Shown here: positions 12,351 to 61,470 of the stretch, piece by piece | Layout: the number at the start of each line of letters is the position of its first letter | Numbering within the stretch: the stretch's first letter is position 1 | Assembly (NCBI GenBank): GCA_963719505.1 | Contig: CAVRCF010000003.1 | Coordinates: 128,001 to 192,000 of the forward strand | Source: Halobacteriovoraceae bacterium | Lineage (GTDB): Bacteria > Bdellovibrionota > Bacteriovoracia > Bacteriovoracales > Bacteriovoracaceae | Reading direction: 5' to 3' | Length of the DNA stretch: 64,000 nucleotides | Program-made: the position numbers and the translations under genes | Notes under the pieces: model-generated | The model's database searches: none | What the model saw: only the letters and a program-made list of their open reading frames with translations | Told to the model about the DNA's origin: nothing

Positions 12351-12401
12351 ACGAATCTCGCCGCGAACTCTTTACCTTAAACAATATTAAGAATTAATTT
12401 A

Positions 12402-12428
12402 TAAAGTAACACTTAATTATACCGATAG
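12402..12428 (+). promoter_or_regulatory. Sigma-28 (FliA) promoter
   Basis: TAAA-N15-ACCGATAG versus consensus TAAA-N15-GCCGATAA, followed by a GAGGAG RBS. Confidence 0.65.
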
Positions 12429-12465
12429 GGGTGGTCTAACTACTAATTAAGAGGAGCTTAACTCT

Positions 12466-12828: not shown

Positions 12829-12833
12829 GAAAT

Positions 12834-13202
12834 ATGAAGAAAATAGAAGAGATCAATATTGTATTATATATTCTTTTAACGATTATAACTTTTGGTCTTT
12901 TCTATTTTTATTGGCAATACCGTCAAATGCAACAATGTAATATTTTGCTAGAATCCAAAGAGCATGGATTTTTAAAATGGTTTTTTCTCTCTCTTATAAC
13001 TTTTGGAATCTATCATTTTTATCATGAATATTTAATGAGTAAAGACATCATTCTGCTTCAAGAAAAGTATGAATTAAAAGTGAATAGTCAGGATTATCCA
13101 ATTTTATGTTTAATTATCAGTGTTTTTGGATTTATTCTCATCAGCGACTTTATCCATCAAGACGATTTAAATAAGATCATTAGAAAACTCAATAAGTTCT
13201 AG
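12834..13202 (+). CDS. DUF4234-like membrane protein
   Basis: Duplicated IITFGLFYFYW / LITFGIYHFYH motif, HQDDLN. Confidence 0.75.
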   Translation: MKKIEEINIVLYILLTIITFGLFYFYWQYRQMQQCNILLESKEHGFLKWFFLSLITFGIYHFYHEYLMSKDIILLQEKYELKVNSQDYPILCLIISVFGFILISDFIHQDDLNKIIRKLNKF

Positions 13203-14097: not shown

Positions 14098-15225
14098 TTA
14101 TTTTTTTGATGTCCTCATGACCTGAAAAAGCTCCATGCCTTGTTGAATAGCACTTGAAGGACATTTATTAATAAGTATACCATCAAAATCGGAAATAATT
14201 GGGGTTGAGTATTTTGATGAATCAGTTCGGTCTAGGTTTTGTAGTTGGTAAATCGTGCCAAGAACCTCACCTTTTTTAAAAGGTTTTCCAAGTTCATGTT
14301 GGTAATCGATAAGCCCAGAGATGGGGCTATAGATCGTTATATAGTCGCTCAGGTGCTCTAGAATAAGAGCTTTTTTAGTGGCTTTGCCTGTTAGAACTTT
14401 TTTGTGTCTTAAATAATTTAAGACTTTTTCTTTTTGCTTTTTTGCCATCGTGATTGAAAAACCTTCCTCACTTTCAAGTTCCAAAGTAAAAGAGTGAAAG
14501 TCCATGTTTAAATGACGACCCTGTTTTTCGAATTCTTCTTCAAGATGAACCCAAGGCATGAAAGTGGCTTCATCCATAGCTCCTGCGAACTCGTGATCAA
14601 CTTCTAGAACATGCTTAAAGTGCAAAAAGCTTACTTCTTTAAGTGAGCGAGTTGCGCTGTATAGGTACTCTGTTGCGCTTGGTCCGGTGTGAAGATCCAG
14701 GACAATATCAGCTGTCGAAGCCAATTTTTGTAACATGAGATTGAGCTTATTATTATCGTGAAGCTGATTTTCTTTGGATAGTCTGGATTCAAGTTTTTTG
14801 ATCTCTTTTTCTAAGAGTCGTTGGTATTTCTCTCTAATAACTTGTTCGGGTTCATTAATATTTTTCTGACTAAACTTTTTTAAATCTACTTTTTGAGCTT
14901 TTATAATATCAATGAAATTTCTATTCCAATTATCACCTGTATTAGGATTGAACCTTCCAAATGTGTACTTACCCAGTTTATTATTTGTCGCATAGGGATT
15001 AGATAAAGGAACAAAGGTGATGGTTCCATTAAATGAAATATCCTTTAAATGTTCGATAAGAGCAAGTATGAGAGCATTCCCTTGAAGTTCTCCGCCATGT
15101 AAACTTGCTTGAATATAAACTTTGGGTCCAGGTTGCGTGCCTGTTAGTGTGTATTTATAAAGAGAGTACTGAGCACCACCAATGAGTTCTTTAATTGGGA
15201 TGATCTCTTTTTTTAGTTTATTCAT
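14098..15225 (-). CDS. Succinylglutamate desuccinylase/aspartoacylase family (M14) protein
   Basis: QASLHGGELQG, NWNRNF, LDLHTG, FTLELESE, C-terminal hybrid barrel; likely start 15225. Confidence 0.88.
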   Translation of the reverse strand: MNKLKKEIIPIKELIGGAQYSLYKYTLTGTQPGPKVYIQASLHGGELQGNALILALIEHLKDISFNGTITFVPLSNPYATNNKLGKYTFGRFNPNTGDNWNRNFIDIIKAQKVDLKKFSQKNINEPEQVIREKYQRLLEKEIKKLESRLSKENQLHDNNKLNLMLQKLASTADIVLDLHTGPSATEYLYSATRSLKEVSFLHFKHVLEVDHEFAGAMDEATFMPWVHLEEEFEKQGRHLNMDFHSFTLELESEEGFSITMAKKQKEKVLNYLRHKKVLTGKATKKALILEHLSDYITIYSPISGLIDYQHELGKPFKKGEVLGTIYQLQNLDRTDSSKYSTPIISDFDGILINKCPSSAIQQGMELFQVMRTSKK

Positions 15226-15226
15226 T

Positions 15227-16729
15227 CTATACCTGTGAGGGATGTTTTTTAGCTTCAATTTGTTTTATAAACCAGTCTACAATTGTGTCGTAGAGTTTAG
15301 TCTTTAAAATGAGGTCTTCAATTCCATCATCGATATTTGGATTATCATTTATCTCAACGACATAGACGTTTCCGTCTGCATCTTCTTTTAGATCTACGCC
15401 GTAGAGACCCTTTCCAATACTGTTGGCGGCCTTTATTGCTGTGTTCATAACTTTCTTTGGAACATCTGAAATTTCTAAAGTTTGAGAGTCGCCGCTAAAT
15501 TCATCATCACTTTGATCTTTTTTGTGATTGTAGATTTGCCAGTGATCATTACTCATAAAGTACTTACACGCATATAAGCCTTTTTGATCAAAAACTCCGA
15601 TCCTCCAGTCAAACTTTGTATAAACAAATTTTTGAATGAGAATAAGATCACTTTTTTTAAGCATTATTTCGAGAATTGAAATTAACTCCTGTCTATCTTC
15701 AGCTTTCTTTACACCAATGCTAAATGATCCGTCAGGTATCTTTACTACCATTGGATATCCAAACTCTTTTTCTAGTGAGTCGAGAGTCTCCTTCGTTGAA
15801 GACGAGACAAAGGAGCTTGGTATATTGGCCACACCAATTCTGTCCATAAGTTCAGCTACAAATACTTTGTTCGTGCACTTGAGCATGGAGTCGGCATCGT
15901 CGATAACAACGAGACCTTCAGATTCAGCTTTCTTCGCAAATCTATAGGTGTGATTGCTAATAGATGTTGTTTCACGAATAAAAAGAGCATCGAATTCATT
16001 AATTCTCGACAGATCCTTTTTCGTAATAAATTCACAATAGATAGATTTTGATTCACATGACTTTTTAAATTTCTCTAAAGCTTTTGGATTACTTGGAGAT
16101 AATTCTTCGTCTGGATCATGTAAAACGGCGATATCATAAATATACTGTTTATGCTCTTTTGGAAGACGCCAAATTCTATTGCTATATTTTTCCAGTGCCT
16201 TTCCAAAAAAATCTTCATCACCTTCTTTTAATTCGCCTAATGATGAAGGGATAATAGAATTGATCTTCCAAACTTTATCAAAGACGAGTCTTACTTCTAA
16301 AATGGGAACAGGGTAGTAGGTGTAAATGTCAGAAGCTAATTTTTTAAACTCAGAAATCTTTGATTGCCCAAAGTAGACTTTAAAGGCGATCATGACGACA
16401 TTATCTTTTATATTTTGATACTTTTTTAACATGTCCTCAGAAACGAGCTGGAGTTCATCAATATCACTGATGTAAATTCTTTTTTTACTCAAGTCATTTA
16501 TTGTTTTTAAGTTCGGAATAATCCTATGATTTCTAGCTTCGGCAAGAAGGGAACAATAGTAACCCGAAGAGAGGTACTTATATTTTTTAGAGAGATTAAT
16601 AATCCTTAGATTTTTTATCTCTTGGTATTTCTTGTTAAAAAGATAGTCTTTGGCCGTAACCAATGATTCCGTTGGGTAGTAGGGTTGCCAGTCTGAAATT
16701 TTATCGACTATTACAATAAAGTCATCCAC
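15227..16729 (-). CDS. RimK-family ATP-grasp ligase with N-terminal RLAN domain
   Basis: YLSSGYYCSLLAEARNH (RLAN), DALFIRETT, KIPDGSFSIGV, DWRIGV, GVDLKE, EINDNPNID. Confidence 0.92.
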   Translation of the reverse strand: MDDFIVIVDKISDWQPYYPTESLVTAKDYLFNKKYQEIKNLRIINLSKKYKYLSSGYYCSLLAEARNHRIIPNLKTINDLSKKRIYISDIDELQLVSEDMLKKYQNIKDNVVMIAFKVYFGQSKISEFKKLASDIYTYYPVPILEVRLVFDKVWKINSIIPSSLGELKEGDEDFFGKALEKYSNRIWRLPKEHKQYIYDIAVLHDPDEELSPSNPKALEKFKKSCESKSIYCEFITKKDLSRINEFDALFIRETTSISNHTYRFAKKAESEGLVVIDDADSMLKCTNKVFVAELMDRIGVANIPSSFVSSSTKETLDSLEKEFGYPMVVKIPDGSFSIGVKKAEDRQELISILEIMLKKSDLILIQKFVYTKFDWRIGVFDQKGLYACKYFMSNDHWQIYNHKKDQSDDEFSGDSQTLEISDVPKKVMNTAIKAANSIGKGLYGVDLKEDADGNVYVVEINDNPNIDDGIEDLILKTKLYDTIVDWFIKQIEAKKHPSQV

Positions 16730-16780
16730 ATTTAGTCCTTTTTCTAATACTATGAGTATATTAGCCTAAAGGAAGATTAA

Positions 16781-17896
16781 GTGAAGAAAAATATCAAATA
16801 TCGGTTAGCAAAGTTGGATGATGTTGCACAGTTAGTGGAACTTGAAAACTTGTGCTTTGACTATGATGCTTTGGGATCTAGAAATTTTAGGTATTTTATC
16901 AATAAAGGCCATGATGATCTCGTTGTGCAGCTCATTGAAAAAGAAATTGTCGGCTACGGGCTATTACTTTACAGAAAAGGTACCTCTCTTTGCCGTCTTT
17001 ACTCAATAGCCGTATCTCCTGAGCATACAGGCAAGTCTTTAGGTAAAGATCTAATGTTAAAGTTAGAAGACTATGCCCAAAAAAGAGACTCAAGTTATAT
17101 TAGACTTGAGGTTAAAAAATCAAATGCTCGGGCATTAAAGCTCTACGATAAAATTGGTTATAAAGAATTCTCGGTAAAGCACGAGTATTATGAGGATCAG
17201 GAAGATGCGATTTGCATGGAGAAAAAGGTCCAAAAAATCTCTAAAAAAGATGATACTTTAAGCGTACCTTTTTACAAACAGACCACAGAATTTACCTGTG
17301 GTCCGTCAAGCCTTATGATGGCGATGAAGTCAATTGACCCCAAAAAGAAGATCTCCCGGACCCAAGAAATTCAGATTTGGAGAGAGGCGACGACCATCTT
17401 TATGACCTCCGGACATGGGGGATGTGGCCCCCACGGTTTGGCACTGGCCGCACACAAAAGAGGTTTTGACGTTGAGCTTTATCTCAATACTAAAGACCTT
17501 CTCTTTGTCAGTGGAGTCCGGCAAAAACACAAAAAAGAGATTATAAAGATTGTTCAAGAACAGTTTGACCGTGAGATTAAGCATCATAAAATTCCTGTAA
17601 AATACGGAAAAATCAACTGGAGTGAGCTGACGCAAATTATTTCTAATGGAGGAGTCCCTCTGGTTTTAATAAGTTCCTATCGTTTGACTGAAACAAAGAC
17701 CCCCCACTGGATTGTCATTACGGGAATGAATGAAGACTTTGTCTTCTTTAATGACCCGGACCTTGGAGATGACGATGAGGCTTTTGACAATATTAATATA
17801 CCGGTTCGAAAAGACGAGTTTGAACTCATGGCTAAGTTTGGCTCTTCCCAAATTCAGTCTATGCTTATTTTAACCAATAAAAGAGAGATTGCTTAG
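16781..17896 (+). CDS. GNAT (RimI-like) acetyltransferase fused to a C39-like (DUF3335) peptidase
   Basis: LYSIAVSP..GKSLGK, RLEVKKSN; FYKQTTEFTCGP, WREATTIFMTSGHGGC, PHW, NDPD. Confidence 0.9.
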   Translation: MKKNIKYRLAKLDDVAQLVELENLCFDYDALGSRNFRYFINKGHDDLVVQLIEKEIVGYGLLLYRKGTSLCRLYSIAVSPEHTGKSLGKDLMLKLEDYAQKRDSSYIRLEVKKSNARALKLYDKIGYKEFSVKHEYYEDQEDAICMEKKVQKISKKDDTLSVPFYKQTTEFTCGPSSLMMAMKSIDPKKKISRTQEIQIWREATTIFMTSGHGGCGPHGLALAAHKRGFDVELYLNTKDLLFVSGVRQKHKKEIIKIVQEQFDREIKHHKIPVKYGKINWSELTQIISNGGVPLVLISSYRLTETKTPHWIVITGMNEDFVFFNDPDLGDDDEAFDNINIPVRKDEFELMAKFGSSQIQSMLILTNKREIA

Positions 17897-33986: not shown

Positions 33987-35243
33987 TTAAGCAGCTTTTA
34001 GGGATAGTTTTCTAGAGTAGTGACTATCCACGCTTCCCAGATCAATTTTGTTCAAAAGGTTAGAGAAGGCCATCTTGCCTGCAAGGAGATCAATATCTTG
34101 ATACCATTTTGGTAAAAATTTGGGCTCTGTTATATTCATAGATTTGTATGCATCATTAAGAAGAAATACATCATTAATATCGACTTTTCCGCAAAAAAGC
34201 AGATGAGTAAGTTCTAAATTTTTTGTTCGAAAGGCCCATCTAAAAAAGCTGTGAACTCTAATCAATCCTTCAAGATAGGTTCCATCTTTTGTAAAAACAA
34301 TTCCTCCTTGAGCTCCACCTCCTCTGAAAATTCTTGAACTTGACAGATAGCTCTCGTGTTCAGACTGATCATTTGCAATAAAAAAATGGTAGAGGTCATA
34401 GAAGTCGGCTCCTCTTAGCGCCATATCAATAGCAATAACTCTTAATGCGAGCCTTTTTAATCTGGCAAGGTCCATAGTTCCCGTAATAACTTCAGCAAAG
34501 GTTGCTAGACCCTCTTGTGTTTTTGTTGTTCGAGGAGCTCCTTGGCCCATTATGGTTAAATTTTTTTGAAGACTTCCGTTTATGCCTGTTAGTGAGTGAG
34601 TCATGACCTCATGGACAAGTAGCTGATCAAAGTCATACTTAGTAAACTGCGCCTCTTTTCGAATTTTTATTTTGGTTTTGCTCGCAGATGCTTTTGCCGT
34701 CATCTTTTCTGTAATTTCAAACTTAGGCCCTTGATCTTGAAATACCTTCTTGGACTCCTCTTTGAGATACTTCCTTAAGTCTGCGCTGCTAAACCTTTGT
34801 GGAGAGTCTACTAAATAGGGGGGAGCGTATTCTTGATGGGCCAGTAATATCTTATTGGCGGTATCAAGATGTGAGTAGTTACTTCCAAAGAGCTTGTGAT
34901 CAGGTCGACCATACTCTCTAATACTAAGATCTTGAAAATTGGAACTTCCCGCAGCATCAACTAACTCGATTGCATTAAGATAGCTTCTAATCATTGAAGA
35001 AGTATAGATGTGTAAGGGATCGTTGGCAGAGAGCTGCCTCTCTAGTTTTCCGAGTGCTAGTTTGGCGTCAGTAAAGTCAGCCTTTTTGTATTTAAAACTT
35101 AAGCTAGGTCTTTGACCTTTTTTCATTTGACTAAAAAAAGAACTCTCTAAGTGACTAGGCCAGCTTATATGTTCGAGTATTCGAATACTCTTTACTACTT
35201 CGACAGCCTTATTATTTATATTCATTAATTTTAGATTCTTCAT
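33987..35243 (-). CDS. QEGLA-motif / DUF1704 metallopeptidase
   Basis: HEVMTH zinc motif, TTKTQEGLATFAE, RIFRGG, FTKDGTYLEG. Confidence 0.88.
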   Translation of the reverse strand: MKNLKLMNINNKAVEVVKSIRILEHISWPSHLESSFFSQMKKGQRPSLSFKYKKADFTDAKLALGKLERQLSANDPLHIYTSSMIRSYLNAIELVDAAGSSNFQDLSIREYGRPDHKLFGSNYSHLDTANKILLAHQEYAPPYLVDSPQRFSSADLRKYLKEESKKVFQDQGPKFEITEKMTAKASASKTKIKIRKEAQFTKYDFDQLLVHEVMTHSLTGINGSLQKNLTIMGQGAPRTTKTQEGLATFAEVITGTMDLARLKRLALRVIAIDMALRGADFYDLYHFFIANDQSEHESYLSSSRIFRGGGAQGGIVFTKDGTYLEGLIRVHSFFRWAFRTKNLELTHLLFCGKVDINDVFLLNDAYKSMNITEPKFLPKWYQDIDLLAGKMAFSNLLNKIDLGSVDSHYSRKLSLKAA

Positions 35244-38913: not shown

Positions 38914-40221
38914 ATGATCAAATTTTCCGTCATTCTTATTGCACTTTCGACCATTATTTATCTACAGGTAAAGCGAACAAATGAGCAGTCCATTGCCAGT
39001 TTATGTGAGCTGACAACAGATATTCGGCAATGTCCTGAAAATCTAGGAAGTCTTTTTCTTCCCCGAACATACTCTGCAAGGGCCATATATGTTGGCTTTT
39101 CTAGAGACCAAATTCATGTCGATTTCTTGTATTCCCTTATTGATGAGGTGTCTAAACTTGATGTGGCTCCCAAGGTAAATATTTTGATCCCCAGTCTAGA
39201 AGAATACGAAGCTCATAAAGTTTTAAAGAAGTACTTTGGCAAAGAGGATTATAGCTTTATCAATCTTATTCCGACAGCTTCAAAGGATGCTGTTTGGGCC
39301 CAAGACTATTTAGAAATTCTTTTTAATACCAAAACAGGACAAAGCGAGATCGTCGACTTGCCTTATTATGAAAGAGAAGGGGAGGACCTTCCTGCATCAG
39401 TAGCACTTGTGTGCCAAAAAGAGTTAAAACCTCAAGCTGAATTTACGACAGAATACAAGCCAGGAAGTGGAGATTATGGAGGAAATATAGAAGCTATTAC
39501 CACCAAGATTTTAACTGTAGGAACAAATCTCTCTGATGAAACATATAAGGTCCTAAAAAGCTTAACCTCACAGGAAATAACAGAACTTAATGTCGACTGG
39601 TTAGAGACAGGTCATGTGGATGAGTTAATTACAACACTTCCGTTTAAGAAAAATGCCGAGCCTTGTGAACAGGCCCTCCTTATCGCATCTCCAAAACTGG
39701 CATATGACACTATTGCTGCAACTCCTATAGATCTTAAAGAACAGAAAAATCCCAATAGCCCATTTTTTGATAATGAAGATGTGTGGGTTGATCATTTTCA
39801 CTGCCTCTTTAGGAAAAACTCCAAAAGATCAGATTGCTTAGAATTAGAAAAAGCAAATTTAGTGTACCAAAGTATTATTGATCAAGGTGTTGCAACTATT
39901 CAGACTCTTATTGAGAAACATCATGGATGTCGTCTCAAAGAAGAGAGATTCCCTCAACTCTTTGTCCCTTTAAAGTATAGAGATAAGTATGGAACTTTGG
40001 ACGATAGAGCAGTTTCTTTGAATCCAAATAGTGTTAATAATATTTTCTTCTTTCCCAATCTAATCTTGGCAAAGCAGTCTTTTGAACCTTTTCAAAAAAC
40101 AGTTGATAAGGTCTTACTCAACTTTCCTTTTAAAGCGATTTATATCGATGATAAGTTTGCCCACGAACTCAATGGTGGGATTCATTGTGCGACAAATATC
40201 TCCTATGGCTGTGCCCCGTAA
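38914..40221 (+). CDS. Protein-arginine deiminase (PAD) family catalytic-domain protein with signal anchor
   Basis: VWAQD, DYGGNIE, DWLETGHVDE, GGIHCATN: Asp/His-x-Asp/Cys catalytic set of PADs. Confidence 0.82.
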   Translation: MIKFSVILIALSTIIYLQVKRTNEQSIASLCELTTDIRQCPENLGSLFLPRTYSARAIYVGFSRDQIHVDFLYSLIDEVSKLDVAPKVNILIPSLEEYEAHKVLKKYFGKEDYSFINLIPTASKDAVWAQDYLEILFNTKTGQSEIVDLPYYEREGEDLPASVALVCQKELKPQAEFTTEYKPGSGDYGGNIEAITTKILTVGTNLSDETYKVLKSLTSQEITELNVDWLETGHVDELITTLPFKKNAEPCEQALLIASPKLAYDTIAATPIDLKEQKNPNSPFFDNEDVWVDHFHCLFRKNSKRSDCLELEKANLVYQSIIDQGVATIQTLIEKHHGCRLKEERFPQLFVPLKYRDKYGTLDDRAVSLNPNSVNNIFFFPNLILAKQSFEPFQKTVDKVLLNFPFKAIYIDDKFAHELNGGIHCATNISYGCAP

Positions 40222-52100: not shown

Positions 52101-54044
52101 ATGATGCAAATACTTATTGTGGGACTTATTGTTATGGGCTTTTTTTCAATTACTGGAGACGACTTGAAGACCAATTCAGCTGTACAGAAAGATTCAAAGA
52201 TCGAAGCAAAAATTGAAGAAATTGTCGGTGAGATGACTCTCGAGGAAAAGGTTGCCCAAATAATTCAGGCAGAAATTAAGTTCATCTCCCCAAAAGATAT
52301 TGAGAGCTATCCGCTGGGTTCAATCTTAAATGGTGGAGGCTCTTTTCCAAATAATGACAAGCAAGCAAAAGCGAGTGACTGGGTTTCATTAGCTGAATCA
52401 TTTCATAGTGAGTCTTTAAAGCACGGCATGAAGATTCCGATCATTTGGGGAACAGATGCCGTGCACGGACATAATAATGTCCACGGCGCTACTTTATTTC
52501 CTCACAATATTGGTCTTGGTGCAGCTCAAAACCCAAAACTGATTGAACAGATTGGGCGTGCGACAGCGAAGGAAGTTCTCGCAACGGGAATTGATTGGAT
52601 TTTTGCACCAACTGTAGCTGTGGTGAGAAACGATAGATGGGGGCGAACTTATGAAAGTTACTCAGAGGATCCTAAGATTGTTAAGTCTTATGCCGCTAGC
52701 ATGGTATACGGTCTTCAGGGTAGAGGAGATGAAATTCTTAGTCGAGATCATGTCATTGCCACGGCCAAACATTTTATTGGCGATGGTGGAACTCAAGACG
52801 GAGTGGATCAGGGTGACACAATTGTCAGTGAGCAAGAGCTACTAAGTCTTCATGCTCAAGGTTATATAAGTGCTATCAATGCTGGAGTTCAAACGGTAAT
52901 GGCCAGCTTTAATAGTTGGAACGGTTTAAAGATGCATGGGCATAAATATCTTTTAACGGATGTCTTAAAAGGTAAAATGAAATTTGATGGCTTCGTTATC
53001 GGTGACTGGAATGGACATGGGCAAGTAAAAGGGTGTCGAAATGATTCTTGTGCTGAGGCCATTAACGCTGGAGTTGATATGCTTATGGCACCAGAAGATT
53101 GGAAGGCTCTCTATCACAATACACTTGCTCAAGTTAAAAATGGAGAAATCCCTCAGACGCGTTTAAATGATGCAGTTACTCGCATTCTTAGAGTCAAAAT
53201 GCGTTATGGTGCTTTTGAGCTTGAGGCACCTTCAAAAAGAAGGCATGCAGGAAAATCTAAAATTATTGGATCAGTTGAGCATAAAGCCCTAGCAAGACAA
53301 GCCGTTAGAGAGTCTTTAGTTCTTTTAAAAAATAAAAATAATATCCTTCCTCTTTCAGCGAATACCAATGTTTTAGTCGCTGGCAGTGGAGCTCATAATA
53401 TAGGTAAACAAAGTGGCGGCTGGAGTCTTAGTTGGCAAGGAACGGGAAATACAAACGATGATTTTCCTGAGGCCACTTCAGTTTATGATGGATTTAAAAA
53501 GACTCTTCTAAAAGGCGGAGGCAAAGCGGCTTTAAGTGTTAATGGAGAGTTTGAAGATAAGCCTGATGTTGCTGTGGTCGTTTTTGGTGAAGAGCCATAT
53601 GCCGAAGGACAAGGGGATATTGAGAATCTTTACTATGGAAGCCGATACCAAGGAGATCTCAAACTTCTTAAAAAGCTAAGGTCACAAAACATTCCGATTA
53701 TAAGCATTTTTTTAACGGGGAGACCACTTTGGATTAACCCTGAATTAAATGCCAGTGATGCTTTCGTTGTAGCCTGGCTTCCGGGAACGGAAGCAAATGG
53801 GATTGCGGATGTCCTGATTAAAGATGCGAATGGAAATATAGATTTTGATTTTAAAGGTAAGCTCTCTTTCTCGTGGCCAAGTCACGCCAATCAAGTCTCA
53901 ATAAATATTGGAGATAAAGATTATCAGCCGCTATTTCCCTATGGCTTTGGCTTAACCTATGCCGACAAAGATAAGTTAGGAGATAACCTTTCTGAAAACC
54001 CTTTTCCCAACAATGATGGCCCAGGTGACTTAAAAAACTCTTGA
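52101..54044 (+). CDS. GH3 beta-glucosidase / exo-beta-glucanase (ExoP-like), ending early at a frameshift
   Basis: WGTDAVHGH, RWGRTYESYSED, AKHFIGDGGT, IGDWNG (nucleophile), GEEPYAEG, PLFPYGFGL. Confidence 0.93.
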   Translation: MMQILIVGLIVMGFFSITGDDLKTNSAVQKDSKIEAKIEEIVGEMTLEEKVAQIIQAEIKFISPKDIESYPLGSILNGGGSFPNNDKQAKASDWVSLAESFHSESLKHGMKIPIIWGTDAVHGHNNVHGATLFPHNIGLGAAQNPKLIEQIGRATAKEVLATGIDWIFAPTVAVVRNDRWGRTYESYSEDPKIVKSYAASMVYGLQGRGDEILSRDHVIATAKHFIGDGGTQDGVDQGDTIVSEQELLSLHAQGYISAINAGVQTVMASFNSWNGLKMHGHKYLLTDVLKGKMKFDGFVIGDWNGHGQVKGCRNDSCAEAINAGVDMLMAPEDWKALYHNTLAQVKNGEIPQTRLNDAVTRILRVKMRYGAFELEAPSKRRHAGKSKIIGSVEHKALARQAVRESLVLLKNKNNILPLSANTNVLVAGSGAHNIGKQSGGWSLSWQGTGNTNDDFPEATSVYDGFKKTLLKGGGKAALSVNGEFEDKPDVAVVVFGEEPYAEGQGDIENLYYGSRYQGDLKLLKKLRSQNIPIISIFLTGRPLWINPELNASDAFVVAWLPGTEANGIADVLIKDANGNIDFDFKGKLSFSWPSHANQVSINIGDKDYQPLFPYGFGLTYADKDKLGDNLSENPFPNNDGPGDLKNS

Positions 54045-54561
54045 AATATTCGATAAACGTCCCAGTAATCCTTTTAAAAATTTTCTAGCAGATTCAATCA
54101 ATCAAAAAAAAGAACTACCAGCGGGTATTGGCACTAGTGCAGATCAGTCGGTTAGGGTTATTGCCATTGATAAAGAACTTCAAGAAGATGCTCGCCAAAT
54201 TTCTTTTCTGGGTTCAAAAGAGAAGTCCTACTTCTTTGAATCCTCTTACACTTTGGACCTTTCTAAATACCTTAAAACAAATGGATCACTCTCTTTTGAT
54301 ATAAGACAAGATGTCAAAGCATCCAAAGAAATTTATTTAAAAATTGAACAGACAAAGATTAAATTTAGCGAAAAGTATAATCAACTCGGAAACGGAAAAT
54401 GGACGACAATTGAAATTCCCTTAGATTGTTTTGTGTCCGAAGGTTTAGACTTAGCTTCAGTGACTAGGGCTTTTGAGGTCAGTAGCAAGGGCTCGGTAAC
54501 TTTCTCCCTTGCTAATTTAAAGCTTAATCAGAAAGCAATCAGCGGCAGTTGTCTTCGGTAA
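54034..54561 (+). pseudogene. Out-of-frame C-terminal beta-sandwich domain of the GH3 enzyme
   Basis: +1 frame is open from 54034: KTLEIFDKRP...IDKELQEDARQ...LDLSKY..NGSLSFDI...WTTIEIPLDCF; deleting one A from the A6 run (54032-54037) fuses it to GH3. Confidence 0.8.
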
Positions 54562-54721
54562 AGCTTTAGCAGCTTAATGACTTTAAAATTTACGCCTCAA
54601 AGCTAGATTGCCAATAAATTAGGTAGGAAATAATTGAAAAAATGTAAATTCTTACCTTTTTACACTAATCTAGAGCTAATTATTTTAGCTACTTAGCTCT
54701 TTAGATATCGTAAGTATCAAT

Positions 54722-54755
54722 TTGTCTTAGACAATTAGCTGTTGTCTGCTATCAT
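54722..54755 (+). promoter_or_regulatory. Promoter/operator of the precursor gene
   Basis: TTGTCT-T-AGACAA palindrome over a TAGACA -35, third half-site TTGTCT at 54742, extended -10 TGcTATCAT ending at 54755, ATG at 54762, no SD. Confidence 0.55.
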
Positions 54756-54761
54756 TATATT

Positions 54762-54944
54762 ATGAAAAATTATAAATTTAGTCTTCCTGAAAAAATCAGC
54801 TTCGAGGACTTGGCCCAAGAGATTGTGCCAAACTACGATGAATTATCAACCGAAACTCAAGAGAACACTTTGAGTGCATTTGCAGCTTATGGCTGCTTTG
54901 GTTCTCCTTACTTTGACATATCATTTTGTGGGGAGTCTTCTTGA
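54762..54944 (+). CDS. Putative RiPP precursor peptide (60 aa)
   Basis: N-terminal YKFSLPEKI (RRE-binding-like), acidic leader, Cys/Gly/Ser/aromatic core GCFGSPYFDISFCGESS; stop overlaps the PqqD start. Confidence 0.7.
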   Translation: MKNYKFSLPEKISFEDLAQEIVPNYDELSTETQENTLSAFAAYGCFGSPYFDISFCGESS

Positions 54945-55210
54945 GACTCAAGTCAAATATTATTATTAAAAGATATAATGACGAAAGCTGCTACTTGATT
55001 GATTTAGAAAGTGAAGAAGAAAATTTTTATAAATGTGAGGATGTAACATCGCTGCTGGTAAATTATATCAATGATAAGGATACATTTGATAAAGAAGACC
55101 TCATTAATATTTTAAAGTCTGTTTATCGTGACGTAAAGAGTGACCAAATTGAAAATGATGTGACAGAGTTTATCAATTACATGAAAGAGCAGAATTTTGT
55201 TGCTGAATAA
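54941..55210 (+). CDS. PqqD-family RiPP recognition element (stand-alone RRE)
   Basis: ~89 aa; three strands (IIIKR / YLID / FYKC) then helices, ending Y.DV..DQIENDV.EFI..M.EQNFV; TTGA start/stop overlap with the precursor. Confidence 0.82.
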   Translation: MRLKSNIIIKRYNDESCYLIDLESEEENFYKCEDVTSLLVNYINDKDTFDKEDLINILKSVYRDVKSDQIENDVTEFINYMKEQNFVAE

Positions 55211-56321
55211 ATGCACGAAAGCTTTGATTGCGATTAGTATCTCCAAAGTTTGCTGACTTAATCGCATTTAGTGAAATCTCATCAAGTTTACTCGTTTCCA
55301 TCTGTTTTAATTCCTCAAAAATTAAAATCCAATCTTCAGATTCCATATCAACTAAAAATCCATTGATGCCATGAGTGATTTGTTCCTCATGACCCGAGTT
55401 ATTCTTATGACATATACATATCGCTCCAAGGCTTAAAGCTTCTTGAAGCGCCAATCCAAAAGGTTCATAGATTGAAGGAAAAAGTATAAATCTTGAAGAT
55501 AAGATGTCTCTTTCAAGCTGGCTTTGACTATTGGTCCAGTTTAGATTTGTTATATTTTTTTGAGCGAGAAAAGCTTCACCTTCTGATGTTAGGAGGTTGA
55601 TATCTAAGCCACGAATAGTGAGGCCCGTTTTAGACCAGTCATTATTGAGGATAAAGTGAAACCCTTTTTGTGGGTGAACGCGAGCAAAAGTATAAATATC
55701 ATACTTAAACTTTCTTTGTGAGTATTCACTAAGATCTTTCTTCTCAGCTGCACCTGGAAGAGGGATGTGAAATATAGTTTTATTTTCTATTTGATCTTTA
55801 TAGTACTTTTTTAAATGTTCGGATGTGATTTTTGAATTCGTTACATAGGCGCCACTTACCTTTATCCAGCTATTTTCAAACCTTAGAAAGGAAAAACTCA
55901 TAAGATCAATCATGCTGGTAATGGCATTTTTAAAGAAAACGCCATCAAATTTTTGAAGCTTAGATGTCTTAAGTATTGAATCATGAAGGGGCTTACCCAG
56001 AATATGAGTGTCATAAACAGTGGGAATTTTGATGAAGTCGATATAAGCCAAGGTCATATAATCGGCAATTTTGAAACTAAATTTTCTGTGGCCCAGTTGT
56101 GTCTTTAGGGTTGCCTGATACTTTGCAATGACTTCCTCTGTAAATGTATTATTGAATTCATCCATCTGTACATGCATTAAATTTTTATTAGTTTTGATTT
56201 TATCAGGTGAAAAAATAACAAAGAAAACATCATCAAACTCCTCGGAGTACCTCATTGTCCACTGTGCAATTCTTCTCATTCCTCCATTGTTAATAACACA
56301 GCTAAAGAGAGCTTGAGTCAT
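55173..56321 (-). CDS. Glycosyltransferase family 4
   Basis: ARVHPQKG, FPSIYEPFGLALQEA, ITHGINGFLV. Confidence 0.88.
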   Translation of the reverse strand: MTQALFSCVINNGGMRRIAQWTMRYSEEFDDVFFVIFSPDKIKTNKNLMHVQMDEFNNTFTEEVIAKYQATLKTQLGHRKFSFKIADYMTLAYIDFIKIPTVYDTHILGKPLHDSILKTSKLQKFDGVFFKNAITSMIDLMSFSFLRFENSWIKVSGAYVTNSKITSEHLKKYYKDQIENKTIFHIPLPGAAEKKDLSEYSQRKFKYDIYTFARVHPQKGFHFILNNDWSKTGLTIRGLDINLLTSEGEAFLAQKNITNLNWTNSQSQLERDILSSRFILFPSIYEPFGLALQEALSLGAICICHKNNSGHEEQITHGINGFLVDMESEDWILIFEELKQMETSKLDEISLNAIKSANFGDTNRNQSFRAFIQQQNSALSCN

Positions 56322-57718
56322 AGGTACCTCTGCATATAGTTGAATATGGTTTTGAAATTTTTAATAGCTTCATCTACATCAAAACCTTTAGAAGTAGGGT
56401 AGAGAATGACCTCTAATTTATTTAAGAGATCGACTTTGTTTGCCTTGATGTCATCCTGTGAGGTTGAAAAAGTGTAGACTGTTCCATCTATTTCTGGAAG
56501 ATAGAAATGATCAACAAAAAAATAGTCAGCATAGTGTTCTTGGACATCTTTTGATATTAAAGACATTTTCTTCTTTAATGGAAGAAGCTCACTTTCTTTA
56601 TATGAATCAAAATGAGAGATGGGCCTAAAGGATTCTGAGTCAATGCCTCTAATCATATCTTCAATGAAAGAATTCATTTTGAAATCCTCATTCCATATTG
56701 AGTTATAGACATGTTGAGTCATAAGACATATCAACCTTAGATCGTGTGCCCAACTTGAGAAAAAATTGATATCTCTGTCGGTCTCTAGATCCATAAGCTT
56801 AAAGAGTTGGCCTCTGATATTATCTAGAGGAAGTCCCTTGATAAAAAGTTTAATATATTGAGGTGCACATTCAGGCTTTTTTGTGAAATCAATGGATTCA
56901 GTGTCTATAAAACGGCCATCAATCAATAAGTTATCGTAGCTTATTGACTTGTGAACGATTCCTTTTTTGAAAGCATTAATATAATGATGAAATAAAGTTT
57001 TTAGTATTTCTGATGGGGGAGAGTTAAATTTATTTTTAATGAAGTTTTGCGCTTTGATCTTATCTTCTTCACTGAGAAGGCAAGGGTGTAATTGGGCTAA
57101 GCGATATGTTTTGGCATCTCTTACTTGAAGAGTATTATGCATTTGATTAAAAGTTTTTTCTTTGTATAAGAATGATCCTAAAATCTCCAGTGAACCAAGA
57201 TTTGATCTCTGATTTACAACGATAGAGGAGATAATCGAGTTTAAGCAGTCTCTGGCCAAATAACCGCCCCAGCGGTGGTGGAAGTCTGGAGTTATCGCCA
57301 AAGAGTTTTTTCCGCAACCCTTCAATTGGGTATCATATAGTAAAACATGGCGAGAAGAGCCTATGGATTGATAATCAGGAGCAAAAAATCTTTCAGTGTT
57401 CAATGTCAAGTCGGCTTCTTTGTAAAAATTCTCGCTAGATTCTTTACTTTCAAAGCCACCTGAGTTGAAGGCCTTTGTAGCAAGACCAAATTGTGTCAAA
57501 TCTGTTTTTGTTTTATCAAAGATCATATGTTCACAGGCTTCTTGAACATCTTTAACATGCCATGATTTAAGTTGATGCGGGTAACTAGCTTTTAGCTGCT
57601 TAATATACTCAGCATTCATTTCCAATCTTTCTAAGCAGTCAGGGTTGATAACCCATGGCATAACTTCTTTTTCTTTCAAATAAACAGATGTATACTTTCT
57701 AAGATCTAAGTCTTTCAT
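56318..57718 (-). CDS. SelO/YdiU-like (MchC-like) kinase-fold protein
   Basis: WVINP, TQLKGCGKNSL, QVRDAKTYRL, GIVHKSISYDNLLIDGRFIDTES parallel the SelO motifs QLKGxG and GFxHGVMNTDN...G..IDY. Confidence 0.65.
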   Translation of the reverse strand: MKDLDLRKYTSVYLKEKEVMPWVINPDCLERLEMNAEYIKQLKASYPHQLKSWHVKDVQEACEHMIFDKTKTDLTQFGLATKAFNSGGFESKESSENFYKEADLTLNTERFFAPDYQSIGSSRHVLLYDTQLKGCGKNSLAITPDFHHRWGGYLARDCLNSIISSIVVNQRSNLGSLEILGSFLYKEKTFNQMHNTLQVRDAKTYRLAQLHPCLLSEEDKIKAQNFIKNKFNSPPSEILKTLFHHYINAFKKGIVHKSISYDNLLIDGRFIDTESIDFTKKPECAPQYIKLFIKGLPLDNIRGQLFKLMDLETDRDINFFSSWAHDLRLICLMTQHVYNSIWNEDFKMNSFIEDMIRGIDSESFRPISHFDSYKESELLPLKKKMSLISKDVQEHYADYFFVDHFYLPEIDGTVYTFSTSQDDIKANKVDLLNKLEVILYPTSKGFDVDEAIKNFKTIFNYMQRYL

Positions 57719-57746
57719 CTAAAAAGCTTACAGGTAGATCTGGGAT

Positions 57747-58871
57747 ATGAAAATGACAAAGTATTTGTGGATTCAGCTTGAAGGAAAGGACCATTGGAAA
57801 AGTTCGAGAGTCCTTGTTGAATCATGGAAACGTGCCTACCAGAGTCGAGCCGACATCGATTTTCAGGAAGTCTCTACAATTAATAACAAAGAGGAAATCT
57901 TAGCTTGGTTTAAAAATATTAACTTCAATCCAGACGTAATTGTGGTGGCCGATCCAAGAGTCAATATTGTGCTTCTCAAGTCAATCTTTAAAGAAAAATT
58001 CTTTTTTATCCATATTCTTGGAGACCCTATTAGGAAACTTTTAGATATCCATCAACAGGCACTTTTTGTAGATAAAACAAACCTCATTGTTGGAAGCTTA
58101 GCTAATTATAAAATATTATCAAAAATCGTTTCTCAAAATATAATTAAATATTTCCCTTTTAATCCTCCAGTTGAGACCCAAGCCCATTTTTCGAAGAAAA
58201 GAAAAAAATTTCTTTATATGGGGCGCATCGCTTATTTTAAGAATGTCCATCATCTCATAAACCTTTTTGATGAATTTTGTAAGTTAAACTCTGAGCAGAT
58301 TGAACTCACTATCGCTGGTTGTCCAAGTAACGTTAATCTTCCAGCCGAGCCAATGGGACATTATATAGGATATCCCGCTGAAATTTTTTTAAATGCACTC
58401 GAAAAAGAAAAAAACTCCAATCTTACTGTAAACTATCTTGGAGGTTTGGATGAAGACTCTCTAAAGAAAGAGGTGGAAAAGGCTGACGTCCTGGTGAGTT
58501 TGTCCACAGCTCCAGAAGAAGATTTTGGATTAAGTGTTCTCGAGGCTCTCGGCTTCGGTAAACCTTGTATTTTGACTCGCTGGGGAGGGTATCGTGAATT
58601 TGAAGGTCTCGAGGGAGTTAGCTTCGTCCCCGTCGACAAAGTTGATAATGGTCTTGTTCTCGATAAGAGGCGCTTCTTTGAGCTTATAAAAAAAGGATGC
58701 CTATTGAGTAAATTGACACTTATCGAATGGCAAAATAAAAGGGATGAAGTCCTGATGTCGACTAGCCTTAAACCAAGAGACGAAGAACTTAAGAAGAACG
58801 ATGAATTTAAAGTGAAATTTGGAGATTTTTATAATGCCTACGAGCGATATGTATCCCCTTACTGGGATTAG
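57747..58871 (+). CDS. Glycosyltransferase family 4
   Basis: LYMGRIAYFKNV, ADVLVSLST..EEDFGLSVLEALGFGKPCILTRWGG. Confidence 0.88.
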   Translation: MKMTKYLWIQLEGKDHWKSSRVLVESWKRAYQSRADIDFQEVSTINNKEEILAWFKNINFNPDVIVVADPRVNIVLLKSIFKEKFFFIHILGDPIRKLLDIHQQALFVDKTNLIVGSLANYKILSKIVSQNIIKYFPFNPPVETQAHFSKKRKKFLYMGRIAYFKNVHHLINLFDEFCKLNSEQIELTIAGCPSNVNLPAEPMGHYIGYPAEIFLNALEKEKNSNLTVNYLGGLDEDSLKKEVEKADVLVSLSTAPEEDFGLSVLEALGFGKPCILTRWGGYREFEGLEGVSFVPVDKVDNGLVLDKRRFFELIKKGCLLSKLTLIEWQNKRDEVLMSTSLKPRDEELKKNDEFKVKFGDFYNAYERYVSPYWD

Positions 58872-59481
58872 AGAAGACGAAAATTGGATCGTGACTCATA
58901 AGAAAAGATTGGATTTATCCTTTTCTACAAAAGAGAAACCTGTTTTCTTGAGTGCGAGTCTTCCTGTCATTATTCAATCAGATCAATTGCCACTTGCCTG
59001 GTTAAAAAGTGATCCAGGATTTAAAATCTTGCTCAGAGATAAAGCTGCTAACATTGAGAGAGATTGGATCTACCATCCAATGACCTCTCATAATAAAAGA
59101 AAATACCAACTACGACAAAAGCCAATTAAAGAGGTGATGCGAGTGTTAGTTGTTCTCGATTCAAACTCCTCACAATCTCAGCTCGCCGCATTTATTGAAG
59201 AGTCAAAAAAAAGATGGGACAAAGCTGATGTTTTATTTATTGGGTTTAGGCATTTATTACCGAAACTCAATACAGTATTAGTTGACCCTTACTTGTTTTG
59301 TTTTCAGTCCTCTTGGAGTCCAGATTTGATCATCTTTGATAATGGAGAAATCGACTTCTCTCCTTTCGTCCTGCACGGTCTTCATCTTGGGGGCAAGCTC
59401 GCTGATACTGCTCTGAGGGATGGTCAAAAGCCTAGTGAAGTTATAACAAGGTGGTATGGAGACTGGGAGCTTTATGATTAA
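58819..59481 (+). CDS. Hypothetical protein (start uncertain, possibly 58834 or 58849)
   Basis: Overlaps both neighbours in operon fashion; alpha/beta C-terminal half; no recognised motif. Confidence 0.6.
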   Translation: MEIFIMPTSDMYPLTGIREDENWIVTHKKRLDLSFSTKEKPVFLSASLPVIIQSDQLPLAWLKSDPGFKILLRDKAANIERDWIYHPMTSHNKRKYQLRQKPIKEVMRVLVVLDSNSSQSQLAAFIEESKKRWDKADVLFIGFRHLLPKLNTVLVDPYLFCFQSSWSPDLIIFDNGEIDFSPFVLHGLHLGGKLADTALRDGQKPSEVITRWYGDWELYD

Positions 59482-60073
59482 TGATATTATTATCGTCGAC
59501 GATTTTTTACCTAGTGAACTCCTTAAAACTTTTATGGATAAGAATAGGGAGTACAGCGCTATAGATAAGGTTTATTACGCAGGAGAGACTAACTTTCCAA
59601 CGTCTGGCGAGGTAAAAAAGCTTGGTCAATTTCTAAAAGAAAAAAAGATATTTGAATTTAAAGACTTTGAAATGAGGTTACGCAGAACATCTCCTCAGAA
59701 TAGTAACGATTTTAAAAGCTTTATTCACGTTGATACTTTCTGTGAATTTTCAGGAATTATTTATTTAAACTCTTCTCAAGATCGTAAAGATCCAACGGGA
59801 ACATATTTTTGGCAACATAAAGTTACAGGAAGAAAAATGTCACGTTTAGATAGCTTAAAAAATCAATTTATTGATAATGCTATTGTCGAGTCGAAGTCAA
59901 AAGATTTCTCGAGCTGGGATTGTTGGAAAAAAATTGAGTTCGTGAGTAATAGGGCCATCTTTTTTCCAGCAAACTTTTTTCATTCACCAGTTCCACCGGA
60001 TATTTTCTCAGGAGATAGACTTACTATAGATTTGTTTTTTAACAAGTTGAGTGACTTTAAGTTTCGAGAGTAA
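59474..60073 (+). CDS. 2OG-Fe(II) oxygenase (DUF6445-like)
   Basis: IIIVDDFL, FIHVD, GIIYLN, GTYFWQH, NRAIFFPANFFHS, RLT: HxD...H triad plus 2OG Arg. Confidence 0.8.
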   Translation: MINDIIIVDDFLPSELLKTFMDKNREYSAIDKVYYAGETNFPTSGEVKKLGQFLKEKKIFEFKDFEMRLRRTSPQNSNDFKSFIHVDTFCEFSGIIYLNSSQDRKDPTGTYFWQHKVTGRKMSRLDSLKNQFIDNAIVESKSKDFSSWDCWKKIEFVSNRAIFFPANFFHSPVPPDIFSGDRLTIDLFFNKLSDFKFRE

Positions 60074-60136
60074 GGATAATCTAACGAGGTGCCGGTCTTG
60101 CATCTTAACTTGTTAACTGTATGCCTTAGGACTCTT

Positions 60137-61018
60137 TCATGAGCTTTCTTCTTTGTGATAAACTTCTTTGTTGGTACAAACCTTTATCTCATCAGCTCCA
60201 AAACACTCATTTAATGTTTCCATAAAGTTGTCGAGCTTATCAAATTGAATTTTTGCAGTTTCTTGGTGGGAATTTACAACTAATGTAAGGTCTTTTTGTT
60301 GCGAGTATCGCTCCTTGATTTCATCAATTAGACTGGATATAGTACTTTTCTTCCAGTAATCAATTGCACCCAAATTGTTTGGAATTTCCATGATTTTTCC
60401 AGAGTTAGTTTCCAGTAGGAAAGGAGAAGTTGTGCATTCAACACCATCCCATAGAAGATTTAGGTAACGCTGCAGGTTGTCACCTTCCCAGCCACTTCCG
60501 TCGAGGAGACTTGGATTCGTAGCAGAACTTTCAACCTTTAGTCCACAATCAATAAGCGACTCACAGACTCGTTCATCAGCCATCCAGCCACCGGCGCGAA
60601 AAGATGTTATTCCTTTGAAGCCGCGAGACTTTAGTTTTTTTAATGAGTAGTCGATAAGCTCTCTTATTTCGGATTTGTCATAAGACAATAGCATGACCTC
60701 TTGACCTTTCATTTCTCCTTGATTGTAGTCACCGTCAATACTAAAACATGGACCTTGACGGGGTGTTACTCCTGCAGCATGCACAAGGTGATGAGGTGTA
60801 TGCAGGTGAAGTCCTATCTCATCATCTTGAGCTAAAACCGAGTCTATCTTCTCATCGACTTCTTCAGATGAAAAGCTAGACTTCGTATAGTAGGCGGGGT
60901 TCATAAAGTGTACCACAGGGACTTGCCAGCGCTTTTTAAATTGCCGTATTCGTCCAAGGTTTTCCTCTCTGAGTGATGTTCCTTCCCAATCGACACTGAG
61001 TATTAGGCTAATGCTCAT
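60137..61018 (-). CDS. Polysaccharide deacetylase-like (NodB/CE4-type barrel)
   Basis: LSVDWEG, DEIGLHLH, SFRAGGW, MEIP. Confidence 0.78.
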   Translation of the reverse strand: MSISLILSVDWEGTSLREENLGRIRQFKKRWQVPVVHFMNPAYYTKSSFSSEEVDEKIDSVLAQDDEIGLHLHTPHHLVHAAGVTPRQGPCFSIDGDYNQGEMKGQEVMLLSYDKSEIRELIDYSLKKLKSRGFKGITSFRAGGWMADERVCESLIDCGLKVESSATNPSLLDGSGWEGDNLQRYLNLLWDGVECTTSPFLLETNSGKIMEIPNNLGAIDYWKKSTISSLIDEIKERYSQQKDLTLVVNSHQETAKIQFDKLDNFMETLNECFGADEIKVCTNKEVYHKEESS

Positions 61019-61065
61019 TGATATCTCTCCACACTTTAGAGCTATTTACCTATCATGGGGGATAT

Positions 61066-61470
61066 ATGAACTTATTTAAAGCAGGAGGATTAAGACAGAA
61101 AAATTTGCGTTATTTCTTTAAGGGACTTAAATCACTGATGTTTAAAAAAGAGTTTAATCAACTCTCAGATGATACAAGGTTAAATATTCGAAAATCTTTC
61201 CTGGCCGTCTTTTCTTGGGTCATAATGATCGTTCTTTCAGTCATTATTGTGAGCTATTTTTCAACAGGTGAAGATTCCACTCATTCAGTTTTCTTTAATG
61301 TTGTGTCTGCCTTAACCAATTGCGGTTTAAGTCTTGGTACTCTAGATCAAACATTACCACTTGTTTCAAAGTTTATTTTTATCTTCTTAATGTCCGTAGG
61401 AAGGATTAATATTTCAGTGATGATTATGGTCTTTTTTCTCTTCGTCTCTAAAGTCAGTAAGATTAAATAG
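61066..61470 (+). CDS. Single-module TrkH/KtrB-like K+ transporter unit
   Basis: AGGLR remnant, TM, pore loop VSALTNCGLSLG, TM with LMSVGRI; likely ATG at 61066 behind GGGGGA. Confidence 0.65.
   Translation: MNLFKAGGLRQKNLRYFFKGLKSLMFKKEFNQLSDDTRLNIRKSFLAVFSWVIMIVLSVIIVSYFSTGEDSTHSVFFNVVSALTNCGLSLGTLDQTLPLVSKFIFIFLMSVGRINISVMIMVFFLFVSKVSKIK

Follow-up and report, generated by a model that had tools for sequence, protein, structure and literature searches.

The stretch of DNA analysed here, 64,000 nucleotides (nt) of contig CAVRCF010000003.1 of a Halobacteriovoraceae bacterium (hereafter the window), carries between positions 54762 and 60073 a gene cluster that combines a 60-residue precursor-type peptide, a stand-alone protein of the PqqD type, two GT4 glycosyltransferases and a kinase-fold protein related to SelO. 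The evidence makes it probable that this cluster represents an undescribed family of pathways for peptides synthesized on the ribosome and post-translationally modified (RiPPs) that depend on a RiPP recognition element (RRE) and are patchily distributed in the Bdellovibrionota, the SelO-like enzyme serving to nucleotidylate and the GT4 enzymes to glycosylate. The core set consists of the precursor, the PqqD protein, the SelO-like enzyme, GT4-A, GT4-B and a 210-amino-acid (aa) protein without an assigned family. The SelO-like gene is the most distinctive of the cluster and the one most constantly linked to the RRE, and a previous reading made from the letters and open reading frames (ORFs) of the window (the sequence-only reading) gave this enzyme too little weight. 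The ORFs of the block claimed there all exist in the ORF listing, and the features are as follows:

54728-54755, + strand: promoter-like site TAGACA-16-TATCAT with a TG extension (consensus scan, 10/12 matches)
54762-54944, + strand: precursor gene, 60 aa (ORF listing and homologues)
54941-55210, + strand: PqqD-type stand-alone RRE, 89 aa (Pfam PqqD, 30.9 bits)
55173-56321, - strand: GT4-A glycosyltransferase, 382 aa (Glycos_transf_1, E 1.3e-13)
56318-57718, - strand: SelO-like kinase-fold protein, 466 aa (structure model and fold comparison)
57747-58871, + strand: GT4-B glycosyltransferase, 374 aa (Glycos_transf_1, E 3e-19)
58819-59481, + strand: cluster-specific protein of 210-220 aa, no fold assigned (alignment of relatives; no family match)
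59456-60073, + strand: 2-oxoglutarate (2OG)/Fe(II)-oxygenase-like protein, DUF6445-like, 205 aa (DUF6445, 23.4 bits)
60137-61018, - strand: 293-aa neighbour, outside the cluster (no Pfam or NCBIfam match)

Related loci were gathered from scans of genome and metagenome contigs, from a sample of 401 genomes of the phylum and from wider stretches cut from those genomes, with duplicates counted once (L040 and L042 repeat L002, and L012 repeats L003). Flanking sequence sufficient for a judgement is available at seven distinct loci, namely the window, the L004 type (four metagenome contigs, L004-L007, whose enzymes are 73-87% identical to those of the window), L002, L003, L023, L024 and L025; the stretches of L001 and L008 are not long enough for this. 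All seven combine a precursor, a PqqD and a SelO-like gene, and the conserved precursor beside a stand-alone RRE that the sequence-only reading had proposed is therefore borne out at every locus.

The precursor and its recognition element

Comparison with its homologues indicates that the small ORF is a genuine, conserved precursor-type gene. It is single-copy in its own genome, and a profile search of 5.8 billion proteins recovered 15 homologues, every one of 57-68 aa. Relative to the L004 homologue, 24 codons differ, 22 of them synonymously and two nonsynonymously, as against 21 synonymous and 14 nonsynonymous differences in the PqqD gene, and at 97% identity between the window and L004-L007, compared with 73-87% for the enzymes, the precursor is the most conserved protein of the cluster. 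Judged by these codon differences, the precursor is under strong purifying selection. The peptide has an acidic leader (net charge of -5 over residues 1-35) before a core, at about residues 38-60, that holds two Cys and four Tyr and ends in GESS. In an alignment of 17 precursors Pro9 is invariant, Tyr4 and Tyr50 are nearly so, and residue 6 is Phe or Tyr throughout, giving a leader motif of [F/Y]xxP at residues 6-9. The leader, which makes up the N-terminal half, is shared, and at least four types of core can be told apart in the 20-28 residues at the C-terminus, so that the alignment displays the conserved leader motif and variable core by which RRE-dependent RiPPs are judged. A Ser or Thr lies among the last four residues of all 17 precursors, as E-[S/T] in 13 of them. 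Two Cys are found in 15 of the 17, for which the disulfide envisaged by the sequence-only reading is possible; given that the other two precursors have no Cys, a disulfide is not class-defining.

The constancy of a single Tyr raises the question of whether the peptide is no more than the source of a small molecule or cofactor, as for pyrroloquinoline quinone or mycofactocin, with one or two residues (the Tyr or the C-terminus) ending in a glycosylated product. The mycofactocin pathway includes glycosyltransferases, and the presence here of a PqqD protein and of glycosyltransferases, together with a core set that lacks a dedicated protease or exporter, would be consistent with such an outcome. 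Nevertheless, this scenario is improbable: no radical SAM or other cross-linking enzyme was found with Pfam and NCBIfam, and a peptidase and an exporter are encoded in some relatives. Furthermore, some ten sequences of the Bdellovibrio-type group differ in their leaders and yet have nearly the same core of ~21 residues, VYAYDCFDYAGNGNYFAYPDC, which suggests that the whole core matters.

The PqqD gene starts with a TTG at 54941 that overlaps the TGA stop of the precursor gene (cTTGA), with a Shine-Dalgarno-like GGGGAG 6 nt ahead, and the two genes overlap, abut or lie no more than 28 nt apart at all seven distinct loci. The encoded protein matches Pfam PqqD at E 3.4e-7 (30.9 bits, cut-off 23.4) and is the sole PqqD-family match in its genome. 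In a profile comparison with the PDB, TbiB1 was the best match (E 0.0019, over the full length) and LppB (9X8Z) the second (E 0.003), with TfuB1 at E 0.12 and PqqD itself at E 1.7; by this measure the chaperone is nearest to the RREs of lasso peptides and of linear polyphosphorylated peptides (LPPs). Such TbiB1/LppB-type RREs bind leaders with a [Y/W]xxP motif, according to PMC13381572. A defence or conflict system was also considered as a candidate, on account of weak matches to GT4-conflict families of Pfam (28.9 and 24.1 bits, cut-off 26), and was rejected in view of the precursor and the RRE and of the result of PADLOC, in which no cluster protein matched a defence system other than through a chance-level AbiEii match on the PqqD protein.

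The SelO-like enzyme

The 466-aa protein was modelled with AlphaFold2 on a 62-sequence alignment, which gave a predicted local distance difference test score (pLDDT) of 93.7 and a predicted template modelling score of 0.93; a single-sequence model was unusable (pLDDT 32.1). The top eight Foldseek matches of the model in the PDB are all SelO/YdiU, to which VIA aligned it with Z of 18.3-19.6 over 296-305 residues at a root-mean-square deviation of 4.0-4.5, the alignments ranging over residues 1-466 of the model. The next VIA match is SbnC, with Z of 11.0, and other kinases reach at most 8.5. A comparison of profiles is consistent with the fold: when the family was set against 11 canonical SelO proteins of related genomes, hhalign returned a probability of 97.2% (E 3e-11) and paired GSSRH with GDGRA, QLKG with QLKG, R200 and R206 with two SelO Arg, and N263...D272 with NTDN...IDYG at the same nine-residue spacing. 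This match needs the SelO alignment, given that single SelO sequences returned probabilities of only 0.7% and 4.8%, and a profile of the nine closest relatives found among PDB sequences only matches of E ~1, to kinase catalytic loops. On the basis of the model, the protein belongs to the SelO/YdiU superfamily, and the label SelO/MchC-like, under which the sequence-only reading had entered it, holds at the superfamily level, two of 81 distant family members scanned passing the Pfam SelO cut-off.

A word-indexed database contains nine close relatives of the protein, and an exhaustive profile search found 162 at E <= 0.001 and 44 at E <= 1e-30. In a FastTree phylogeny rooted on canonical SelO, the cluster type of 430-485 aa is placed within a wider radiation that includes forms of 540-620 aa. 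Since a canonical SelO is encoded elsewhere in the same genome, the cluster protein is a dedicated, paralogue-like branch; a search of that genome with PF02696 at E <= 0.001 did not recover the cluster gene. A third SelO-related gene is located on the same contig (L010 1192-3009; 605 aa, 29 bits against Pfam SelO), and its catalytic loop aligns with that of the cluster enzyme; no PqqD-like neighbour was seen beside it. Longer SelO-like genes (555-561 aa) adjoin small PqqD-like genes in L026 (3660-17745) and L042 (3957-6038), in L026 in the company of GT4 genes, a 2OG oxygenase and a carbamoyltransferase, and these loci look like a sister family of cassettes.

Across the 62 sequences five residues (R123, K133, R200, N263 and D272) never change, and R206 is nearly invariant. 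K133, R200, R206, N263 and D272 correspond to K113, R176, R183, N253 and D262 of SelO. These SelO residues hold a flipped ATP by its gamma-phosphate, together with the Mg ion, and so explain the transfer of AMP rather than phosphate (PMC8097203). The position of the HRD Asp is taken by Ser (S258), which is invariant in the nine closest relatives. Given that the SelO residues holding the flipped ATP are kept, the enzyme is most likely a nucleotide-monophosphate transferase, predicted to use AMP or UMP.

Two other chemistries of this fold have to be considered. In the first, the enzyme would pass the gamma-phosphate to a Ser, Thr or Tyr, in the manner of the pathways for LPPs and for paeninodin, a tailored lasso peptide, and sugars would then be placed on the phosphate or nearby. 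The kinship of the RRE with lasso and LPP RREs would suit this, as would the combination, described in PMC13381572, of RRE, kinase, SpI-like peptidase, NTP transferase and exporter in LPP clusters lying among glycosyltransferases, and the presence in L023 of an S24/S26-like peptidase, an NTP_transf_2 protein and an ABC exporter. However, the enzyme is SelO-like and not HprK-like, with Ser258 at the HRD Asp position, and the residues that bury the gamma-phosphate in SelO are conserved, which argues for transfer of a nucleotide monophosphate and not of phosphate and leaves phosphorylation with little probability.

In the second, the enzyme would act in the manner of MceJ, adenylating the C-terminal carboxylate of the peptide instead of a side-chain hydroxyl; the activated C-terminus would then be coupled to a sugar or oligosaccharide that the two GT4 enzymes make, giving a C-terminal glyco-ester. 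MchC/MceJ is the one SelO-family member known in peptide maturation, acting at the microcin C-terminus (PMC3281104); the Ser or Thr near the end of every precursor, with E-[S/T] in 13 of 17, and the identity of the third-best structural neighbour, the carboxylate-adenylating NIS synthetase SbnC (Z 11.0), point in the same direction. Nevertheless, this is unlikely for two reasons: first, neither an HlyC-type acyltransferase (MceI/MchD) nor an IroB-like glycosyltransferase was found in the cluster with Pfam and NCBIfam. Second, the C-terminal residue itself varies among precursors (S, V, F, I, M, T or G). A bolder reading, less likely than not, has the SelO-superfamily enzyme act as the RRE-guided, class-defining maturase of a new RiPP class, nucleotidylating the conserved Tyr or a C-terminal Ser/Thr, after which the two GT4 enzymes would build a sugar decoration on or beside the nucleotide or phosphate handle and so yield a nucleotidyl- or phosphoglycosyl-peptide.

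Linkage, distribution and surroundings of the cluster

Both glycosyltransferases pass the Glycos_transf_1 cut-off of 26.4 bits (GT4-A with 51.3 and GT4-B with 69.6) and contain E-x7-E motifs, EPFGLALQE at residue 286 of GT4-A and EDFGLSVLE at residue 258 of GT4-B. The best NCBIfam match of GT4-A, far below the cut-off, is the protein O-glycosyltransferase SdgA, and phmmer searches of the PDB with the two enzymes were uninformative, returning no match for one and a single match for the other. GT4-A is present wherever its side of the locus is available (the window, the L004 type, L002, L008, L023, L024 and L025), and GT4-B is present in the window, the L004 type, L001, L002, L003, L024 and L025 and was not detected in L023. 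GT4-B is followed in six loci by the 210-aa protein, which was not detected in L023 or L025. The ORF of this protein at 58819-59481 overlaps the 3' end of GT4-B and probably starts at the ATG at 58849 (Met11), giving 210 aa, as gene callers have it elsewhere. Searches of Pfam, NCBIfam, PADLOC, the PDB (by profile) and the ESM Atlas returned no match for it, and among 5.8 billion proteins it has only nine relatives.

The 205-aa oxygenase-like protein scores 23.4 bits against DUF6445, just below the cut-off of 24, and H91-x-D93...H176 is invariant in all four homologues. Homologues adjoining the cluster occur only in L001 and in L004, L005 and L007, with a weak one in L026. Only one clade, made up of the window, the L004 type and L001, has the oxygenase, so that hydroxylation would be optional; the gene named by the sequence-only reading is present, and it is not a core gene. 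Other relatives have in its place JmjC, FkbM methyltransferase, carbamoyltransferase, acyltransferase-3, GNAT or extra GT4 genes. L023 carries an ABC-2 exporter and an NTP_transf_2 protein, both found in that locus only, as well as an S24/S26-like peptidase that has a homologue in L024 (E 6e-15). The accessory genes of the relatives (peptidase, exporter, NTP_transf_2, JmjC, FkbM and carbamoyltransferase) fit a secreted, sugar-tailored peptide.

The distribution of the cluster is patchy: a SelO-like match at E <= 1e-5 occurs in seven of the 401 genomes, five of them of the close type, and one of three other genomes of the same genus has the cluster. Gene order and strand vary by clade, with six co-directional genes in L002, three units in the window and PqqD 5' of the precursor in L024, and the flanks of an 87%-related cluster are unrelated to those of the window. 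That the genes remain together despite changed order, different flanks and patchy presence indicates a functionally linked, mobile accessory cassette. Toxin-antitoxin-like pairs, HigB/HigA-like and BrnT/BrnA-like by sequence reading alone, lie beside the cluster at L004 3944-4514 and L002 12772-13280.

Given that GT4 enzymes are typical of polysaccharide loci, and that carbohydrate-related genes, a TonB-dependent receptor gene and a GH3 gene adjoin the cluster in the window, it might be argued that a glycan or a protein is what the SelO-like enzyme and the glycosyltransferases modify, the small ORF and PqqD being bystanders. This is very improbable. The flanks are wholly different in the 87%-related cluster, the precursor and PqqD accompany the enzymes in all seven loci, and the precursor bears the marks of strong purifying selection. 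In keeping with the sequence-only reading, the SelO-like and both GT4 genes travel with the precursor and RRE and do not sit in lipopolysaccharide or exopolysaccharide loci.

In the window the genes of the cluster do not all run in one direction; it is formed of three tightly packed transcription units on alternating strands, namely precursor-PqqD (forward), GT4-A-SelO-like (reverse) and GT4-B-210-aa protein-oxygenase (forward), beyond which the 293-aa gene (reverse) is merely a neighbour. The GT4-A start and SelO-like stop regions overlap by 4 nt, and a 28-nt spacer separates the SelO-like gene from the divergent GT4-B. GC content is 33-37% over the block and ~40% immediately upstream. The promoter-like site at 54728-54755 ends 6 nt 5' of the precursor ATG and is weak evidence, given that such sites are no more numerous in the scan than in shuffled sequence. 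Inspection of the sequence before the precursor ATG found no Shine-Dalgarno sequence, and the transcript may therefore be leaderless or have a very short leader. Pfam and NCBIfam scans of the block detected no radical SAM enzyme, YcaO, LanM, lasso cyclase, protease or ABC exporter.

The 293-aa gene had been counted by the sequence-only reading as a deacetylase of the cluster. Its homologue is absent from every related locus, and it occurs in 14 of the 401 genomes, of which the 13 besides its own are disjoint from the six other genomes with a SelO-like gene. The protein matches no Pfam or NCBIfam family, and the deacetylase label is an ESM-Atlas lead only (a DUF2334/Polysacc_deac_1 cluster at 0.95). 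Since the gene is not part of the cluster, the de-N-acetylated sugar predicted with it has no basis.

Directly upstream of the cluster, a GH3 beta-glucosidase gene (52101-54561) seems broken at its 3' end: its N- and C-terminal domains stop at 54044, and Exop_C is a separate 102-aa ORF (54253-54561) in a different frame. Directly beyond the 293-aa gene, a 150-aa ORF (61018-61470) matches only the last ~90 positions of TrkH and is a gene remnant. The broken gene and the remnant suggest that the region around the cluster has been rearranged or inserted. Farther away, the window contains two peptide-ligase-like groups, one at 9880-13199 (Gln_deamidase_2, an ATP-grasp protein and two DUF4234 proteins) and one at 14101-17893 (an AstE/AspA-like protein, a RimK-like ATP-grasp protein with an RLAN domain, and a GNAT fused to a C39-like DUF3335), as well as a MATCAP-family protein (tyrosine carboxypeptidase-like, E 7e-101) and a homologue of PAD-like protein-arginine deiminase at 33990-35243 and 38914-40218.

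Proposed pathway and comparison with known systems

Established here are which genes the cluster holds, their conservation, the fold with its conserved active site, the type of RRE and the motif in the leader. That the RRE binds the leader, which of the enzymes relies on it, what group is transferred to which residue, and in what sequence the steps follow are inferred. The 60-aa precursor would be co-translated with the lasso/LPP-type PqqD protein, which would bind the aromatic-x-x-Pro motif of the leader. The PqqD protein would then present the Tyr/Gly/Ser-rich core to the SelO-like enzyme for transfer, most likely, of AMP or UMP to a core hydroxyl, for which Tyr50, nearly invariant, or the Ser/Thr among the four C-terminal residues are the best candidates. 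In a third step GT4-A, and GT4-B with the 210-aa protein, would attach sugars to the peptide itself or to the group already placed on it, and in the clade of the window the 2OG oxygenase may add an optional modification. The window's cluster encodes neither removal of the leader nor export; relatives have the S24/S26-like peptidase and ABC-2 exporter.

Several observations weigh against this pathway. The modification, the RRE-leader binding and the product are predicted from genes alone, and the window's cluster is without a protease or exporter. The 466-aa protein matches no Pfam or NCBIfam family, Pfam SelO being absent at E <= 0.1, and ~165 of its 466 columns are aligned by profile to SelO; furthermore, given that SelO relatives do other chemistry, such as the ester formation of MceIJ, transfer of a nucleotide monophosphate is not assured. 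The acceptor is likewise uncertain: in one of the 17 precursors the Tyr50 position is Trp or ambiguous, and E-[S/T] is missing from the ends GENT, CIPT and two TPIG. Lipids or glycans are common acceptors of GT4 enzymes, the nearest named relatives of the two found here score far below their cut-offs, and the alignment of the 210-220-aa protein has no conserved catalytic-looking residues. Finally, two of the four near-identical copies from metagenomes have one enzyme gene split by a frameshift (SelO-like at L007 8001-9402, GT4-B at L006 417-1477), which may reflect assembly error or decay.

The cluster probably belongs to the RRE-dependent RiPP pathways and brings a signature enzyme that is new to them. 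It is by such an enzyme that a RiPP class is defined, and no described class was found that pairs a SelO-type enzyme with an RRE, in agreement with the statement of the sequence-only reading that the block fits no class it could name. A literature search, in which few subscription journals were covered, found nothing on SelO with RREs or RiPPs or on this cluster in Bdellovibrio. SelO proteins have a single precedent in the maturation of peptides, MchC/MceJ, and its chemistry remains poorly understood. If correct, the bolder reading would give the SelO fold a new role, and peptide natural products a linkage unseen among them, from predatory bacteria. The cluster would also open the first natural-product family from the Bdellovibrionota, predators whose secreted chemistry is little known. 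A six-gene cassette with a 60-aa substrate is tractable for the study of SelO-like activity on a defined peptide, of the recruitment of a lasso-type chaperone to a kinase fold and of the role of GT4 enzymes in peptide biosynthesis.

Among known systems, the glycocins rely on a SunS-type S/O-glycosyltransferase of family GT2 together with a C39-ABC exporter, and they are not known to have an RRE. They share with the present cluster a two-Cys ribosomal peptide and predicted glycosylation, whereas here both glycosyltransferases are GT4 and a PqqD protein and a SelO-like enzyme are added. Lasso peptide pathways differ in their B2 cysteine protease and Asn-synthetase-like cyclase, neither of which was matched in the block with Pfam and NCBIfam. 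With the SelO/YdiU AMPylases and UMPylases (PDB 6EAC, 6K20, 6LNA and 9JYM) the cluster enzyme shares the whole-length fold and the Lys, two Arg, Asn and Asp; it differs in having ~12% identity and no Pfam SelO match, and in being encoded with a peptide and a chaperone, so that it would not act on housekeeping proteins.

The LPP family is described by Popov et al. (Nat Commun 2026; PMC13381572) as linear peptides that are modified by a kinase, undergo signal-peptidase-like cleavage and are encoded among glycosyltransferases, with the genes lppA-K-B-S-D-N; SelO, GT4 and Bdellovibrio are not mentioned there. LPP and paeninodin pathways have in common with the cluster a discrete lasso-type RRE, a linear peptide, an aromatic-x-x-Pro leader motif, a primary modifier of kinase-fold or phosphotransfer type, associated glycosyltransferases and a patchy distribution, and some relatives of the cluster have an S24/S26-type peptidase, an NTP transferase and an exporter. 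In contrast, their kinase is HprK-like, a type that Pfam and NCBIfam did not match here, where a SelO-superfamily enzyme is found instead; two GT4 enzymes and the 210-aa protein are core here, the SpI-like peptidase, NTP transferase and exporter are missing from the window's copy, and the hosts are Bdellovibrionota and not Bacillota.

MchC/MceJ constitute a divergent SelO subfamily that matures the siderophore-microcins H47 and E492 (Dudkiewicz et al. 2012; PMC3281104). Likened by description, the two systems share a very divergent SelO-family protein for a ribosomal peptide, a glycosyltransferase in the cluster and a Ser-containing peptide C-terminus. The microcin systems have the HlyC-like MchD/MceI and a glycosylated catecholate siderophore and no RRE, whereas here a PqqD RRE and GT4 enzymes are present and neither an HlyC-like partner nor siderophore glycosylation genes were matched with Pfam and NCBIfam. 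In summary, by analogy the cluster works most like the LPP/paeninodin pathways and the MchC/MceJ step, while departing from the defining features of each.

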